Source of the DNA: Alphaproteobacteria bacterium
GTDB lineage: Bacteria; Pseudomonadota; Alphaproteobacteria; RF32; CAG-239
Direction: 5' to 3'
Assembly: GCA_015062435.1 (NCBI GenBank)
Contig: SUUR01000003.1
Location: forward strand, 8,184-72,183
Length of the DNA stretch: 64,000 nucleotides
Shown here: positions 58,145 to 64,000 of the stretch, piece by piece
Numbering within the stretch: the first letter of the stretch is position 1
How the letters are laid out: each line of letters opens with the position of its first letter
The notes under the pieces: generated by a model
Database searches by the model: none
The model's input: the letters and a program-made list of their open reading frames with translations, nothing else
What the model was told of the DNA's origin: nothing
Made by a program: the position numbers and the translations under genes

Positions 58145-58308
58145 TTTTGCCTCCACAAAAACTCCTAACTCTATATATTCTACCATAATATATATTTTTT
58201 TCAATATCAAATCACATAATCTGACACAACAAATTCCGTCCACCGGCTTCAATAATTATTTTACGCTTTTCAGAACTTATGTTATCATAATTGTTGGGTA
58301 ATAAAAAT

Positions 58309-58703
58309 GTGCCGCTCATGCATTTGTATGTACAAGTCATGTCCCATGTTTATCCGCTTGTCCGTATAAACTAATAGCGGCACCTTTAATGACCACGTCC
58401 GACACCTCTAACTATCATTGTCCGACTTGTTCGGACAACTTGAGGAAATTTAAGCGAGATACTCCCCTCACACCGGAGTATGACAGGAAAGTAGAGCCGA
58501 AGCATGACCATTAAGGGAAGGAGCCTTATTTCTACCCTCTTAAAGGAGGAGGATTGTACCCTATATGGGAGAGGATTCTACCCTTATTTTCCTCCCCATT
58601 GATGGGGGAGGATTAAGGTGGGGGTGAGGAATACCGCCAATTGTCATGTTGAGCGAAGTCGAAACATCTCATGAGATTCTTCGACAAGCTCAGAATGACA
58701 ATT
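58309..58703. repeat. Cluster of short GC-rich palindromes and degenerate tandem units in a non-coding region
   Basis: Palindromes and inverted repeats: GTGCCGCT (58309-16) with AGCGGCAC (58376-83); TTGTCCGA/TCGGACAA (58418-38); TACTCC/GGAGTA (58460-80); CCTCCCCA/TGGGGGAGG (58591-611); a 65-nt near-perfect palindrome (58639-58703). The GGAGGATT-nTACCCT units are repeated about three times across 58515-58630. Confidence 0.7.
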
Positions 58704-59026
58704 TAGAAATTTTGAAAACTATCGCTTGCGTGTTAGAATTTTATGTGCTTAATTTATTAAATAACAGGTCGAACTGATGATTAATATTTTTTATAATTTT
58801 TTGCCTTTGCCCCACATTTTGACGATGAACCAGAGCTTATCGAGATGAATGCGGATGTTATTTTTCTTGTTGTGATATCATAAATGACAACCCCACTTGT
58901 GAAACATGTCCCAATGAGCTCAAACTCGACATCTGTCCCAATAATCCTTACTGTTCATGTGTAGGCGAACTGGAATAAACTAAATCTATATTCAAGCTCA
59001 AACCTTCCTCCATATCAACAAGAAAA

Positions 59027-59058
59027 GACCTTAGGTTTTATCCTAAGGCCTTTTTTTT
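59027..59058. terminator. Hairpin terminator, the presumed native terminator of tRNA-Val, now separated from it by the IS insertion
   Basis: CCTTAGG (59029-35) pairs with CCTAAGG (59042-48). T8 lies on the plus side and TCTTTTCTT on the minus side. Confidence 0.65.
59051..59058. repeat. Target-site duplication, left copy (TTTTTTTT)
   Basis: Exactly 8 T immediately outside the left IR, identical to 62164-62171. Confidence 0.7.
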
Positions 59059-59073
59059 GGGACTTATATACAA
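59059..59073. repeat. Terminal inverted repeat distal to the transposase: GGGACTTATATACAA
   Basis: Exact reverse complement of 62149-62163. Confidence 0.85.
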
Positions 59074-59097
59074 AACTACCCAAAAGGGAGGTTCTAA

Positions 59098-59325
59098 ATG
59101 ATACGCTTCCTTGAAAATATACTATTTAAGATTGCCGCCTATGTTTTATTTCGGCAGATTATCGCGTTTAATAAAAAATGGACAGGAAAGACCGATAATA
59201 TGCACGGCAAATATGCCTGTGATATTAACGGACAACCCTATGTTATGAGCTATACGCTAGAAAAAGGCGAAAAAATCACCTTTGAAGATTTAGAGCGTAT
59301 AACGATGACAAGAATGAGTTCTTAA
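59098..59325 (+). CDS. Hypothetical small protein with a hydrophobic N-terminal helix
   Basis: 75 aa with a strong SD (AAGGGAGG, 7 nt upstream). Starts 25 nt inside the IS end. Its 3' end overlaps the convergent KTSC-like gene by 36 nt. Confidence 0.5.
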   Translation: MIRFLENILFKIAAYVLFRQIIAFNKKWTGKTDNMHGKYACDINGQPYVMSYTLEKGEKITFEDLERITMTRMSS

Positions 59326-59508
59326 TATGTTTATTATTCTTTCGTGTGACGGGTCTTTTTGTAGCTTAAGGAATGTTTCTTCGCTTACATCAAAGACCAA
59401 TAGATAGCCTCCACCGTTTCTGAACCATACGATAAGTTCATTTCCAGGTTGGTATTCAGTATCAGCATATATAGGACTGTCAACCTCTACTGTATTATCT
59501 ATTATCAT
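59290..59508 (-). CDS. KTSC-domain-like small protein
   Basis: 72 aa. ...YQPGNELIVWFRNGGGYLLVFDVSEETFLKLQKDPS fits the KTSC pattern (x-L-x-V-x-F-x-NG-x-Y-x-Y-x-V). ATGA overlap with the methyltransferase stop. Confidence 0.5.
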   Translation of the reverse strand: MIIDNTVEVDSPIYADTEYQPGNELIVWFRNGGGYLLVFDVSEETFLKLQKDPSHERIINILRTHSCHRYTL

Positions 59509-61001
59509 TCCTTATGTACTCCGCCATTAACGACAAGATGAATTACTTCTATTGACGCTATGCCGTCGCGGTCAACGCCGCGGACGGCTATGTCATATTT
59601 TCCTGTTTTTAGAATGATTTTCTGTATTCCGTCATTATTACGCAAAACCTCGGCGGCAAAACCTTTTTTTGCGTCATAATCCCAGTCCCATTGCCAAAGC
59701 TCTATATCGTCGCCTGTAGCCTTAAAGATAACTTCCTTATCCCCTTTGTCGCCAACTTCTTTCCAATCAAACGACAATGAAATACGCGGCGGCATACCGA
59801 TTGGAATAATTTCATCAACGCGAACAAGAGTTATTTCAAAATCTTCTTCTCTTTTTAGTCGCGCGACTTCTTCAACAGCTCCGCGTCCGAAAGAAAAAGC
59901 GATAATATAACCGCGTTTGCATTGTTTGTTAAAGCGTGACATAGCCGATTTAAAATTATCAATTACATTTCGACCGATATTATCGCTTCGCTTTACCTGA
60001 ATCGGGAAAGACGCTCGTCCTTCATGCAATAAACCGTCAATACCGCCGTCACCGACTTGTTTTGTATGGGATTCGCCGCCATACTGTTCAACAATAAAGC
60101 GTTCAAACTGAAAAGGCGGGGCGTTTCTGATTGTTTCATAATCATATTTCGGCGTTTCAACACTAAAAGTTGGACGAAACAAGTCATTTTCTAACCTCGC
60201 CCGCGTAACAGCGATAGCGTGGACAGACTGATCAATGCCGATAAAATGGCGTTTAAGATTGTGCGCCGCTACAAGAGTCGTTCCGCCGCCACAAAATGCG
60301 TCCAAAACAATGTCACCTTCGTTTGAACAGGCTTTTATTATCCGCTCTAATAAAGCAAGCGGCTTTTGTGTCGGATAGCCAATACGTTCAGGACTATTTG
60401 CGTTTAAAACATTTATCTCCCACCAATCTTCTGGTATTTTTCCAAGAGGATTTGGTTTGTATACTTTATTCGTTCCTTTATGTCGTCCCCACATTGCATC
60501 GTCTTTTCGACCGACACCTTCTGCTCTATAAGCTATTCTAACAGCGTCAGCATTAAAAGTATGTTCGTTACTTTTTCTGTAAAAGAAAATTGTATCATGT
60601 CTTCTACCAAAAGCAGAACGTGGGGCGCTTCCTCCTCTATAACACCAAGCTATCTCATTGACAAATAAAGGTTTACCCCCCCCCCGCACAGGTTGTAATT
60701 TGTCAAGAATATGCACGCGTATGTATGCGTTAGCGTGCCAGTCGCAATGTACAAAAAGAGAGCCTGTCGGTTTTAAGACGCGCCAGATTTCATCTATCCT
60801 TTCTTTCAACCAACCTATGTAATGTTCCATACCGCCAGCCCAACGGTCTGTAAAACTTCTGACTTCGCCACTATCTCCCCAAATTACTTCATAATTACGG
60901 TTACTAAAAAAGGGTGGGTCGATATAACATAAATCAACGCTTTCACTAGGAATTGATTTTAATACTTGTAGATTATCCCCTAATATCAATCTGTTTTGCA
61001 T
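59505..61001 (-). CDS. Beta-class N6-adenine/N4-cytosine DNA methyltransferase fused to an Mrr-like (PD-(D/E)xK) restriction-endonuclease-fold domain and a C-terminal PKD-like domain
   Basis: 498 aa. Methyltransferase motifs: IV DPPF (aa 28-31), TQKP (aa 211-214), I FCGGGTT (aa 236-242). Nuclease fold: FERFIVE...GDGGIDG...IQVK (aa ~299-337). PKD-like: KEVIFKATGDDIELWQWDWDYD...YDIAVRGVDRDG (aa ~421-480). Confidence 0.8.
   Translation of the reverse strand: MQNRLILGDNLQVLKSIPSESVDLCYIDPPFFSNRNYEVIWGDSGEVRSFTDRWAGGMEHYIGWLKERIDEIWRVLKPTGSLFVHCDWHANAYIRVHILDKLQPVRGGGKPLFVNEIAWCYRGGSAPRSAFGRRHDTIFFYRKSNEHTFNADAVRIAYRAEGVGRKDDAMWGRHKGTNKVYKPNPLGKIPEDWWEINVLNANSPERIGYPTQKPLALLERIIKACSNEGDIVLDAFCGGGTTLVAAHNLKRHFIGIDQSVHAIAVTRARLENDLFRPTFSVETPKYDYETIRNAPPFQFERFIVEQYGGESHTKQVGDGGIDGLLHEGRASFPIQVKRSDNIGRNVIDNFKSAMSRFNKQCKRGYIIAFSFGRGAVEEVARLKREEDFEITLVRVDEIIPIGMPPRISLSFDWKEVGDKGDKEVIFKATGDDIELWQWDWDYDAKKGFAAEVLRNNDGIQKIILKTGKYDIAVRGVDRDGIASIEVIHLVVNGGVHKE
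60676..60685 (-). repeat. Homopolymeric G10 tract (C10 on the plus strand) inside the methyltransferase coding sequence
   Basis: Read directly. It encodes R-G-G-G (aa 106-109), is currently in frame, and is the only run of this kind I saw in the window. Confidence 0.9.
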
Positions 61002-61150
61002 TCTTCATTACCTTTGTTGTTTTCAATAGCGGGTTTAGAAACGGAAGCGGGCTTGTCGTTATCCGCTTTTGGCTTTGGCTGAATAAGAGCCATAGCCACT
61101 TCTTCCATACTTGCGTTTATTGGTTCAATAAGTTTTGCCTGTCTTGCCAT
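60986..61150 (-). CDS. Small hypothetical protein (54 aa) between the transposase and the methyltransferase
   Basis: MARQAKLIEPINASMEEVAMAL..., with SD AAGGA 9 nt upstream. Overlaps the tnp 3' end by 26 nt and the methyltransferase start by 16 nt. Confidence 0.4.
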   Translation of the reverse strand: MARQAKLIEPINASMEEVAMALIQPKPKADNDKPASVSKPAIENNKGNEECKTD

Positions 61151-62048
61151 GTGTGAGTTCCTTATATGATAAATGCTTGTTATAACCGCCCGTAACGGCT
61201 GAACGGACACGTTCCAGAGGGGAAAGGGTACGCATATTATGACGACTTGCAAATTCGTTTACATAACGCTGTAAATGCTTTTCGCTCCACTTATGATAAA
61301 TGCCATAATAACCACGTTTCAAAATAGCCCAGAAACTTTCTATGCCGTTTGTATATACTTTTTCACGAACATATTCACCTACGCCGTGATTAACCTTTTG
61401 ATGATTAAATTCTTTCAGTCCTTTATATCCGCCGAACTGATCTGTATAAACGTTCGCGCCAATCTTTACGTTTGCGCGGATTGTCGCAGTTAAAATACGA
61501 CTATTTGTATTTTCGACAGCGAAAGCCTTGACAGCTCCGTCACGTTCTTTTAAGCCGACAACGGGAGCTTTACCGACAGCGCCACGTCCAGAACGCAATT
61601 TTTTATCGCTATGTTTGTTCTTTTCGCTTCCGCCTATATACGTTTCATCAACTTCGACAGTTCCCGATAATTTGTCAGTATATTGCAACCATGATTCGCG
61701 AATACGGTGGGCTAAAAACCATGCTGTTTTTTGCGTACAATTCAGGTATTCAGCTAACTGAATTGAAGAAACGCCTTTTTTAGAATTAACAAGAATATAA
61801 ATAGCAAGAAGCCATTTTTGCAAAGGAAGTTTACTATCTTCAAGCATAGTTCCTACACGAACAGAAAAATGTTTACGGCATTTCTTGCAACGATAAGGCA
61901 TAGGCTTGCCGCATTTTGAAACATGAATGCTACCGCAATACGGGCAAACAACGCCGTTTTTCCAACGCAAATTTTCAAAAAACTTTGCCGCATCTTCTTC
62001 TGTCGGGTATTTTTGAAAAAAATCTATCAGACTAAACTTATCAGACAT
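61125..62048 (-). CDS. IS1595-family transposase (Zn-ribbon plus ISXO2-like DDE domain)
   Basis: 307 aa from the ATG at 62048 (SD AAGGAAAGG). Zn ribbon CPYCG...CKKCRKHF, then VEVDETYIGG, YTDQFGGY and TNGIESFWAILKRG. Confidence 0.9.
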   Translation of the reverse strand: MSDKFSLIDFFQKYPTEEDAAKFFENLRWKNGVVCPYCGSIHVSKCGKPMPYRCKKCRKHFSVRVGTMLEDSKLPLQKWLLAIYILVNSKKGVSSIQLAEYLNCTQKTAWFLAHRIRESWLQYTDKLSGTVEVDETYIGGSEKNKHSDKKLRSGRGAVGKAPVVGLKERDGAVKAFAVENTNSRILTATIRANVKIGANVYTDQFGGYKGLKEFNHQKVNHGVGEYVREKVYTNGIESFWAILKRGYYGIYHKWSEKHLQRYVNEFASRHNMRTLSPLERVRSAVTGGYNKHLSYKELTHGKTGKTY

Positions 62049-62148
62049 TGGCCTTTCCTTTCTTGCTTTTAGCAATATAGGCCGAATCTTATGGCTAGTC
62101 AAGTATTTTTATTATTTTCAATAATTGCTTGCGCTGTTCTGGCTAGCG

Positions 62149-62163
62149 TTGTATATAAGTCCC
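62149..62163. repeat. Terminal inverted repeat proximal to the transposase: TTGTATATAAGTCCC
   Basis: Exact reverse complement of 59059-59073. Confidence 0.85.
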
Positions 62164-62171
62164 TTTTTTTT
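62164..62171. repeat. Target-site duplication, right copy (TTTTTTTT)
   Basis: Exactly 8 T immediately outside the right IR, 3 nt from the tRNA-Val 3' end. Confidence 0.7.
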
Positions 62172-62174
62172 AAT

Positions 62175-62250
62175 TGGTGGGCGCTGAGAGGTTCGAACTC
62201 CCGACCCTCTCGGTGTAAACGAGATGCTCTTCCAGCTGAGCTAAGCGCCC
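62175..62250 (-). tRNA. tRNA-Val (anticodon TAC) with encoded CCA
   Basis: 76-nt cloverleaf folded by hand. Acceptor GGGCGCT/AGCGCCC, D stem GCTC/GAGC, anticodon stem TCTCG/CGAGA with loop TTTACAC, and T arm GGGAG-TTCGAAC-CTCTC. Confidence 0.92.
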
Positions 62251-62426
62251 TTTCTTGCTTACGAAAAAGTTTATACACTCAATAAAATAATTAATCAAGC
62301 AAAAAATTCAAAAAAAAATTACTTTTTTTTATTTGTTATCATAAATCATATAGTTAACAAAATAATTAGGGAGTATGTTTTCACACACTCCCTACTATCA
62401 AATCACCAGTTTTCAATAACTGTCAA

Positions 62427-62699
62427 CTAGTTTACAGAATCCTGCAAAGCTTTACCAGCTTTGAATTTAGCTTGCTTACGTGCTGGAATTTTGATAGCAG
62501 CACCGGTACGAGGATTACGACCTGTTGTAGCAGCACGTTTAGCAACTGCAAAAGTACCAAAACCAACCAAACGAACTTCATCACCTTTTTTCAAAGCTTT
62601 AGTGATAGACAATACCAAAGCGTCTAAAGCTTTAGCAGAATCAGATTTGGTCAAACCAGTTTCGCTAGCAATGCTAGAAATCAATTCATTTTTATTCAC
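62427..62699 (-). CDS. hupB: DNA-binding protein HU
   Basis: 90 aa. Contains MNKNELI...GFGTF...RNPRTG...KF. Confidence 0.95.
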   Translation of the reverse strand: MNKNELISSIASETGLTKSDSAKALDALVLSITKALKKGDEVRLVGFGTFAVAKRAATTGRNPRTGAAIKIPARKQAKFKAGKALQDSVN

Positions 62700-62952
62700 G
62701 ATGAGGACTCCCTCTAATTATAAGTTATAAACCATATAAGCAAAGCAATATCTTGCTTACAAGAGGATTTGAACATTAAAAAAATAATGTGTCAAACAAA
62801 AACAATAAAGATTTCAACATCTTTTGCATTTTTTTGCTAAAAAACTCCTATTTTCTGAGCTTTTCCTGATTTTAAGCTATAAAAATTGATAATATCTGCC
62901 ATATTTTCATTACACTTCCTATATATTTCCCGATTCTTCACTCTCAGTCATC

Positions 62953-62988
62953 ACAAAAAAACGACTCTTATTTATACAAGAGTCGTTT
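62953..62988 (-). terminator. Rho-independent terminator of lon
   Basis: AACGACTCTT (62960-69) pairs with AAGAGTCGTT (62978-87). The A7 at 62954-60 becomes a T-run on the minus strand. Confidence 0.75.
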
Positions 62989-63010
62989 TTATAATTTAAT
63001 TATTTACATT

Positions 63011-64000
63011 TTATTTTTTAGCTTTTAGCGGAGAAACTTTTCCTTTCAAAGCAATCTTCAACACTTCCATTGCATCTGCTACCGGAATAATTTTCAGACC
63101 TGTTTTCACATTATCAGGAATTTCTGCTAAATCTTTTTCATTATCTTTCGGGATAATTACGGTTTTAATTCCGCCCCTCAACGCTGAAAGTAATTTTTCT
63201 TTCAACCCTCCGATTGGCAACACCCTACCCTGCAAAGTAATTTCTCCGGTCATTGCTACATCTTTACGCACAGGAATCTTCGTAAATACCGATACCAAAG
63301 TGGTATACATTGCAATACCGGCAGAGGGTCCGTCTTTAGGGGTTGCCCCTTCAGGAACATGAACATGAATATCCGTTTTTTCAAAAACTTCAGGTTCAAT
63401 TCCCAAATCTTTAGAATGAGCTCTCACCACCGAATATGCTGTTTCAATAGATTCTTTCATTACTTCACCAAGCTTACCGGTTTGTTTAACTACACCTTTA
63501 CCTGGCATATCAACAGCTTCAATAAACAGAATATCTCCACCCACCTCAGTCCAAGCCAATCCGGTAGTAACACCGACATGATCAACTTCTTCAGCTTCAC
63601 CAAATCGATATTTAATAACACCAAGATACTTATCGATATTTTTTTCATCTATAACAATTTTTTTCTTTTTCTTTGCCAAAAGTATTTCTTTCACAGCTTT
63701 TCTGGCCAAAGTAGCCAATTCACGTTCCAAATTACGCACACCGGCTTCTCTGGTATAATATCGAATAATTGAACGTACGGCTTCATCTGTAATTTCCAAT
63801 TCACTTGGTGTCATTGCATTTTCAACAAATATTTTTGGAATTAGATGTTTTTTGGCAATTTCTATTTTTTCATCTTCGGTATAACCGGAAAGACGAATAA
63901 TTTCCATTCTATCCAACAAAGGTCTGGGCATATCTAAAGAATTTGCCGTTGTTACAAACATCACATCAGACAAGTCATAATCAACTTCCAAATAGTGATC
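63011..64000 (-). CDS. lon: ATP-dependent Lon protease, C-terminal part (gene continues beyond the window end)
   Basis: AAA+ lid plus the proteolytic domain, with catalytic DGPSAGIAM and ...GGLKEK. The reading frame is open to position 64000. Confidence 0.92.
   Translation of the reverse strand, partial: DHYLEVDYDLSDVMFVTTANSLDMPRPLLDRMEIIRLSGYTEDEKIEIAKKHLIPKIFVENAMTPSELEITDEAVRSIIRYYTREAGVRNLERELATLARKAVKEILLAKKKKKIVIDEKNIDKYLGVIKYRFGEAEEVDHVGVTTGLAWTEVGGDILFIEAVDMPGKGVVKQTGKLGEVMKESIETAYSVVRAHSKDLGIEPEVFEKTDIHVHVPEGATPKDGPSAGIAMYTTLVSVFTKIPVRKDVAMTGEITLQGRVLPIGGLKEKLLSALRGGIKTVIIPKDNEKDLAEIPDNVKTGLKIIPVADAMEVLKIALKGKVSPLKAKK

Follow-up and report, generated by a model that had tools for sequence, protein, structure and literature searches.

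Insertion sequences (ISs) that carry passenger genes, termed transporter ISs (tIS), have so far been described only in the IS1595 and IS66 families (bioRxiv 10.1101/2021.05.26.445724; PMC3129680), and members of the IS1595 family combine a zinc-finger and DDE transposase with 8-bp flanking duplications (PMC8101967). Restriction-modification (R-M) genes lying within imperfect inverted repeats and an 8-bp duplication were reported in 2010 in Xanthomonas oryzae and Neisseria gonorrhoeae, and one of these units includes a COG3677 transposase-like gene (Furuta, Abe & Kobayashi, PMC2853133). Here we analyze a 3,105-bp unit at positions 59059-62163 of a 64-kb stretch of DNA from an uncultivated alphaproteobacterium (contig SUUR01000003.1; the whole stretch is referred to as the window, and all coordinates are window coordinates). 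We conclude, with a probability of about 0.88, that this unit is a single IS1595-family tIS that is intact by sequence. Both the tIS class and transposon-like R-M units have already been described, and the element adds one member to them.

The ends of the element could be read directly from the sequence. The outer 15 nt at 59059-59073 (GGGACTTATATACAA) reappear at 62149-62163 as their exact reverse complement; when the repeat is lengthened inward, the two arms agree at 20 of 23 positions, and at 23 of 27 at full arm length. A repeat finder returned arms at 59059-85 and 62137-63 (27 nt, 85% complementary) as the longest inverted repeat of the region, and the 15-mer, searched for with up to two mismatches, has two sites only in the window (chance expectation, 0.15). 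Directly outside both tips lie eight T residues (TTTTTTTT, 59051-58 and 62164-71). The distal repeat, i.e., the one far from the transposase, is followed at 59086-59091 by GGGAGG, the ribosome-binding site of an inward-reading 75-aa open reading frame (ORF), and the distal ~46 bp, including CCAAAGGGAGG, are conserved among relatives with differing cargo.

These relatives are IS1595 elements found on metagenome contigs and in named metagenome-assembled genomes (MAGs), labelled with L and a number. Tips of the form GGGAnyTATATAC, the same as those of the window element, delimit units ranging from 1.3 to 5.3 kb on dozens of contigs that are unrelated and independent. In the closest transposase relatives (~71% identical), the tip GGGACTTATATACAA or a variant of it differing by 1-2 bases is located ~115 nt upstream of the transposase, the flanks diverge exactly at the first G of the tip, and the partner tip follows 2.4-3.7 kb downstream. 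Identical 8-bp flanks were observed in 19 of 25 elements, the window among them; together with L059, L062, L073 and L078 this amounts to 23 duplications, i.e., 22 relatives and the window (examples in relatives are CTAAATAA, TAAATTTT, ATTCAAAT, TTATATTT, AAATGAAA and GTATACTT), and on average 7.0 of the 8 positions are A or T over these 23 cases. With these perfect, non-homopolymeric duplications in the relatives, the T8/T8 pair of the window need no longer be suspected of being just a long native T-run. A first-pass annotation of this DNA, made from the sequence alone, had proposed an IS1595-family transposon with defined ends; the exact 15-nt inverted ends with their 20-of-23 extension and the eight T on either side were borne out upon reading the sequence, the 8-bp target-site duplication is supported by the perfect, non-homopolymeric duplications of the 22 relatives, the ends by relatives bounded by the same termini, and the family assignment by the Pfam and NCBIfam matches of the transposase. 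The parts of the element and its duplication are as follows.

59051-59058, no strand: target-site duplication, distal-end copy (TTTTTTTT); 8 bp is the usual length in relatives.
59059-59085, plus strand: distal terminal inverted repeat, far from the transposase; outer 15 nt identical to the other end.
59098-59325, plus strand: convergent 75-aa ORF with a hydrophobic N-terminus, overlapping the 72-aa gene by 36 nt.
59290-59508, minus strand: 72-aa protein with a predicted KTSC fold, last gene of the transposase-strand operon.
59505-61001, minus strand: main passenger, 498 aa; predicted beta-class N6-adenine DNA methyltransferase, Mrr-type PD-(D/E)xK nuclease and C-terminal all-beta domain.
60676-60685, minus strand: G10 homopolymer within the methylase gene, in frame (R-G-G-G); candidate phase-variation tract.
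60986-61150, minus strand: 54-aa ORF, with overlaps of 26 nt at the transposase stop and 16 nt at the methylase start.
61125-62048, minus strand: IS1595-family DDE transposase, 307 aa, assigned by Pfam and NCBIfam; ATG at 62048.
62074-62102, minus strand: putative sigma-70-like promoter (TTGACT-17-TATATT) within the element, upstream of the transposase gene; a consensus match only (10 of 12 positions).
62137-62163, minus strand: transposase-proximal terminal inverted repeat; the flank homology of relatives stops exactly at its GGG tip.
62164-62171, no strand: target-site duplication, transposase-end copy (TTTTTTTT).

The transposase matches the IS1595 family over both of its domains, harboring an N-terminal zinc-ribbon (Zn_ribbon_IS1595, PF12760, E 8.5e-12) and a catalytic domain (DDE_Tnp_IS1595, PF12762, E 2.8e-40), and it scores 189.7 bits against NCBIfam NF033547 (transpos_IS1595), for which the cut-off is 75. 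To our knowledge, the zinc-ribbon is missing solely from the IS1016 group of this family. In an alignment with 28 relatives, C35, C38, C54, C57, D134, D203, E237, E265 and R269 are invariant, and K244, seven residues past E237, is at least 90% conserved; as the invariant zinc-ribbon and DDE residues are all present, the transposase looks intact, with every conserved catalytic and zinc-binding position in place. The ISNwi1 subgroup (with 'ISNwi1+' in ISfinder) is characterized by ends close to ggnnatTAT, a DDEK motif and E-x3-R, with a size of 1.75-4.75 kb for ISNwi1+. The ends GGGACTTAT, K244, E265-x3-R269 and the size of our element agree with this subgroup, to which it may belong. Gene calls on public contigs begin the transposase at the same ATG (62048), and a longer, TTG-initiated ORF begins within the -35 hexamer of the putative promoter, a TTGACT/TTGAAT block that is conserved among relatives.

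All the passenger genes (the methylase-nuclease, the KTSC-fold gene and the 75-aa gene) lie within the repeats, which places the element among the tIS. That an entire cargo-bearing unit moves as one is shown for the clade, rather than for the window copy itself, by three lines of sequence evidence. First, in relatives measuring 2.1 to 5.3 kb, the unit is enclosed together with its cargo by perfect 8-bp duplications. Second, an identical 301-aa transposase (P0009) occurs in several unrelated genomic neighborhoods with three different cargos, and these elements share 98.5% DNA identity across the initial 1,107 bp and the final ~46 bp, the intervening sequence being unrelated. Third, the closest sister element, L067 (87% nucleotide identity, same gene order), coincides with a 3,232-bp contig whose two ends are exactly the tips, which suggests that it has several flanks in its sample, and so multiple copies or insertion polymorphism.

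The same evidence bears on another account, namely that an IS of ~1.2 kb landed by resident methylase and KTSC genes, the far repeat being a chance match or an older solo end. The exact unit has been seen as one copy only, the inner portions of its two repeats differ and the flanking duplication is a low-complexity T-run, all of which would suit such an event; against it, the same tips in L067 enclose genes in the same order, with the L067 contig ending at both, the duplications of the relatives frame whole cargo-bearing units, the distal ~46 bp are conserved despite the differing cargo, and the GC content is raised across the entire unit. We therefore regard it as highly implausible, and retain the reading of a single mobile unit that includes its cargo.

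The 54-aa ORF downstream of the transposase is, judging by its distribution, a gene of the IS backbone and not cargo. The motif of its ~25 N-terminal residues, K-L-I-E-P-I-N-A-S-M-E-E-V-A-x-A-L, is conserved in all close relatives, followed by a variable K/P/E-rich tail, and it is also recognizable after the transposase in the 1.3-kb cargo-free copies L034 and L041; it is this presence in all close relatives, cargo-free copies included, that argues for a backbone gene. In L026, the methylase itself has this motif as its N-terminus. Over the first 28 codons, a comparison of the window with L067 shows four synonymous changes and one replacement, and this mostly synonymous pattern lends support to translation of the frame. 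Pfam, NCBIfam and PADLOC contain no family that matches the motif. In L064, a 52-aa ORF preceding a homologous methylase was considered as the same peptide and rejected, since it does not share the backbone motif. The first-pass annotation had described a four-gene passenger operon with overlaps of 26, 16 and 4 nt between its genes; these overlaps agree with the ORF coordinates and the arrangement of same-strand, overlapping genes stands, whereas the passenger status of the transposase and the 54-aa ORF does not.

Some of the relatives bear on the exchange of cargo. The smallest, 1.3-kb copies are free of cargo, and several of them reside within one Spirochaetia MAG. In a sister element (L080, and likewise L081) with a transposase from the same 90% cluster as that of the window, a P63C-domain gene replaces the methylase and sits between the transposase and the small ORF, with a copy of a 17-nt direct repeat, AAGGAACTCACACATGG, on each side (at 1885-1905 and 2771-2791 of L080; the same holds for L081). 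This repeat corresponds to the start region of the small ORF together with its ribosome-binding site, and may mark the point of cargo exchange; the L080 transposase is truncated to 242 aa. Transposase-less units with the same tips were also observed, one of 589 bp (L073:982-1570, with the perfect duplication GGTGTTTT) and one of 183 bp (L072:256-438), and these are possible non-autonomous derivatives.

We then turned to the main passenger. The 498-aa protein comprises a Pfam N6_N4_Mtase domain (residues 22-263), a Mrr_cat domain (292-399, E 2.1e-9) and an all-beta tail of ~100 residues, and it was called a Type II methyltransferase by PADLOC. Its motif IV, DPPF (D28-F31), precedes motif I, FCGGGT (F236-x-G238-G239-G240-T241), an order that indicates the beta class, and both motifs are invariant in 30 homologues that are 52-78% identical overall. 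The residues D318, D322, Q335 and K337, corresponding to the Mrr-type D...D...QxK motif, are likewise invariant in these homologues. Between the methylase motifs lies a hypervariable segment, as would be expected of a recognition region, and L067 differs in sequence in exactly this segment. There are thousands of full-length homologues (~500 aa, 50-78% identical), and the nuclease and C-terminal domains were predicted with a pLDDT of ~80-94. Given this domain content and the conserved catalytic residues, the 498-aa protein is most likely a one-polypeptide R-M enzyme, a prediction in line with the R-M-like module that had been proposed among the passenger genes and that the methylase-Mrr_cat fusion between the repeats supports. 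Searching the literature for the methylase-Mrr architecture, or for tIS with R-M cargo, we found nothing specific.

An alternative view would keep the mobile tIS and have it carry an orphan methylase, in which the Mrr-like and beta domains serve only DNA binding or regulation and the role is epigenetic or protective. The closest sequence and structure matches of the methylase domain are M.RsrI, M.MboIIA, M.BceJIV and CcrM, all stand-alone methylases, and CcrM likewise bears a C-terminal DNA-binding extension; furthermore, many homologues fall below the Pfam Mrr_cat threshold, the element holds no separate nuclease gene by its ORF list and Pfam matches, and poly-G switches are typical of regulatory methylases. 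Conversely, the invariance of D318, D322, Q335 and K337 would not readily be expected of a domain with a purely structural role, and sister elements pair the same methylase family with HNH (fused), MvaI/BcnI or CfrBI nucleases, such that a nuclease partner is the rule in this cargo slot. An orphan methylase thus appears rather improbable, and we continue to consider the protein a predicted R-M enzyme.

A census of the cargo carried by the window element and its relatives gave the following assignments.

Methylase-Mrr_cat fusion: window, L047, L059, L062, L067.
Methylase-HNH fusion: L045, L048.
Methylase and MvaI/BcnI nuclease: L026.
Methylase and CfrBI nuclease: L029.
EcoRI-type methylase and GmrSD/HNH: L009, L092.
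EcoRI-type methylase, no partner: L020.
C5 methylase and a partner without assignment: L027.
Type IIG-like enzyme: L044.
Other or unknown cargo: remaining elements.

R-M is the dominant cargo of the clade. The methylase-Mrr fusion itself recurs in four other repeat-bounded IS1595 units, the tips being of the same type in L059, L062 and L067 and more divergent in L047; L059 additionally carries HicAB, the methylase of L062 is reversed, and each of these two elements is flanked by a perfect duplication.

The methylase gene also harbors the G10 tract, the only G/C run of at least 7 nt in the 64-kb window. A homologue 78% identical to the window protein (L059) has G8 at the same codon position (gene position 310-317), more distant homologues have no tract, and L067 has G12 (L067:1475-1486), with its ORF split exactly there, such that the first 102 residues lie in one frame and the remainder in another. 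A second allele of the host gene carries a single residue change, R106G, that lengthens the run. This pattern would fit a contingency (phase-variation) locus, though the differences in length may instead be homopolymer assembly errors.

At the far end of the element, the 72-aa and 75-aa genes constitute what by sequence is a recurring distal-end module, as both recur there although the main cargo differs; their homologues in L067, L010 and L092 have the same convergent, overlapping layout. The first-pass annotation had called the 72-aa gene KTSC-like, and this holds for the fold and not for the sequence, which scores 16.3 bits against Pfam KTSC (PF13619; cut-off 25, E 0.008). The AlphaFold2 model of the protein (pLDDT 91.9) best matched, in a Foldseek search, the KTSC proteins 7x8c (TM 0.73-0.77, rmsd 2.2-2.3) and 4rgi (TM 0.71), which points to a KTSC fold for the modelled structure. 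The 75-aa protein matches nothing in Pfam, NCBIfam or PADLOC and has only 7 matches among 1.84 billion representatives, 2 of which are short matches within large repeat proteins. Neither a conserved small second ORF nor a KTSC/75-aa end module is mentioned in the tIS and IS1595 literature that we searched.

The composition of the element points to an origin elsewhere. Its GC content is 40.3%, compared to 33.6 +/- 1.8% for other 3.1-kb segments of the window (z 3.8; 0 of 560 reach the element), the raised GC spans the whole unit, and it is the strongest tetranucleotide outlier (0.031 vs 0.014 +/- 0.002); together, GC and tetranucleotide composition support a foreign origin. These profiles agree with the earlier remark that the element is GC-richer than its flanks. 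The accompanying claim of recent horizontal acquisition was upheld as to foreign composition and not as to recency, given that the same distal junction with host flank occurs in 12 contigs from other samples and that no empty site was found in JGI metagenome contigs. As for further copies, related elements with the same ends were found, and exact-protein look-ups gave no second site for the exact element.

Related tips were also found on six viral contigs (IMG/VR L093-L098), three of which encode a related transposase as well, and the relatives L010/L011 and L092 have phage genes as neighbors (portal protein, Bro-N/ANT, cI-like repressor). Such elements may travel between hosts with phages.

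Taken as a whole, the data led us to a broader, tentative interpretation, to which we give slightly less than even odds: that the clade consists of widespread, dedicated R-M shuttles with a fixed backbone (including the peptide gene retained in cargo-free copies), a cargo slot whose modules are swapped among elements that are otherwise nearly identical, and an optional KTSC/hydrophobic distal module, the copy described here carrying a phase-variable, single-chain beta-methylase/Mrr R-M system not characterized before. Several observations count against our main reading of the element as a tIS with an R-M passenger, or against present-day activity of the window copy. The T8 duplication by itself is weak evidence, being a homopolymer beside a terminator, and the case rests on the relatives. 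Searches for exact matches to the transposase and to the 72-aa protein led to this locus only, in the 'Alphaproteobacteria bacterium' MAG and in metagenome contigs, and the empty-site pattern CCTAAGGCC-T6..12-AATTGGTGGGCGCTGAGAGG gave 0 matches in JGI metagenome contigs. The G tract is uniformly G10 in the four other-sample host contigs that span it. The R-M role of the fusion is predicted from domain content and residue conservation; solved structures that match the 498-aa protein reach the methylase domain only, which also dominated the fold search of the full model, leaving that search uninformative on the C-terminal domains.

Some of these points, i.e., the distal junction shared by 12 other-sample contigs, the lack of an empty site among the JGI metagenome contigs and the uniform G10 of the four host contigs, would also be accounted for if the window copy were a fixed, immobile fossil, intact in sequence but silent, with its G-tract differences reflecting the error-prone lengths of assembled homopolymers. 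Such a fossil would nevertheless have retained every conserved catalytic and zinc-binding residue of its transposase and a perfect outer 15 nt at both ends, near-identical relatives are demonstrably present at several sites, and the tract measures 8, 10 or 12 nt at one codon position in three diverged elements, is absent from distant homologues and is the sole such run in 64 kb. We deem the fossil account unlikely, albeit worth keeping in mind, and favor an element that is mobile as a clade member, while current activity of the window copy is inferred only.

The surroundings of the element include two features that define its insertion site.

59029-59048, plus strand: hairpin CCTTAGG-loop-CCTAAGG in the flank, outside the element; terminator-like, abutting the T-run.
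62175-62250, minus strand: tRNA-Val(TAC) in the flank, outside the element; its encoded CCA end and the tip of the element are 11 nt apart.

Upon removal of the element and one T8, the site reads hairpin-T8-AAT-tRNA, a terminator-like arrangement readable on both strands, with the reconstructed empty junction ...CCTAAGGCC-T8-AATTGGTGGGCG. The insertion splits the tRNA-Val gene from the hairpin, which probably served as its terminator beforehand; the transposase operon would now lie directly downstream of the tRNA in the same orientation, and read-through from the tRNA would enter the element. Terminators as a general insertion target were considered and rejected, as a terminator-like hairpin is found at the duplication in only 4 of 23 reconstructed sites, and the preference supported by these sites is thus simply for A/T-rich DNA.

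To the left of the element, a stretch of ~800 bp (58250-59050) is free of ORFs and raised in GC (~0.40); it contains a cluster of short palindromes at 58500-58710, including a 65-nt hairpin at 58639-58703, and ends at the terminator-like hairpin. A search of this flank for an RNA gene gave no credible Rfam match. On the other side, an HU protein identical in amino acids is encoded in another organism's contigs (L001, L003 and L005; compared with window 62426-63576, 82-89% nucleotide identity). This HU-linked locus was examined as a possible empty site and set aside as uninformative, its downstream region having neither tRNA-Val nor the element.

Combining these data, we propose the following model. 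The backbone would consist of the two ends, the transposase and the small overlapping 54-aa gene, with exchangeable cargo placed between this backbone and the far end. The zinc-ribbon/DDE transposase would be made from the promoter just within one end, recognize the imperfect 27-bp terminal repeats and insert the entire unit via 8-bp staggered cuts in A/T-rich DNA. Here the target was presumably the T8 tract of the terminator hairpin located 11 nt downstream of tRNA-Val, and a copy of this tract now stands on either side of the element. Once established, the methylase-nuclease would defend the host and penalize loss of the element, and the G10 tract may switch it on and off.

For annotation, the analysis delimits a mobile element of an uncultivated alphaproteobacterium, identifies its parts and assigns the 54-aa ORF, by its sequence, to the IS. 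The relatives form a large, cleanly bounded set of IS1595 tIS with mostly R-M cargo, and provide direct evidence for one route by which R-M systems spread and swap specificity. Components of note are the backbone peptide, the KTSC/75-aa pair and the predicted methylase-Mrr fusion with its G tract. Were the interpretation as dedicated shuttles to hold, the element would represent a phase-variable R-M system that is carried by a transposon and switched through a poly-G tract. All of this fits within the current understanding.

Compared to known systems, the element resembles IS1595 tIS in its zinc-ribbon and DDE_Tnp_IS1595 transposase, its GG..TAT ends, its 8-bp duplication and its passengers within the repeats; it differs in that the best annotated matches in plasmid records are less than 60% identical and bear only the generic name 'IS1595 family transposase'. 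Like phasevarion methyltransferases, the methylase ORF contains a G tract whose length, as assembled, differs between close alleles, one of them frameshifted at the tract, whereas the window gene is transposon-borne and nuclease-fused, and no within-population variation was observed among the four host contigs, all G10. With Type IIC/IIG enzymes (Eco57I, MmeI, BcgI-like) the predicted protein shares a single chain that joins a methylase to a PD-(D/E)xK nuclease, as well as a recognition region that is hypervariable among its homologues; known examples of that type run from nuclease to gamma-class methylase to recognition domain, whereas here an N-terminal beta-class (RsrI/CcrM-like) methylase is followed by an Mrr-type nuclease and a beta-sandwich, with the function being predicted. 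Lastly, as in the units of Furuta and colleagues, R-M genes lie within imperfect terminal repeats and an 8-bp duplication; those were isolated cases that left the mobilizing enzyme open, whereas here a transposase that looks intact accompanies the cargo, the arrangement recurs clade-wide, and many kinds of R-M cargo are carried.

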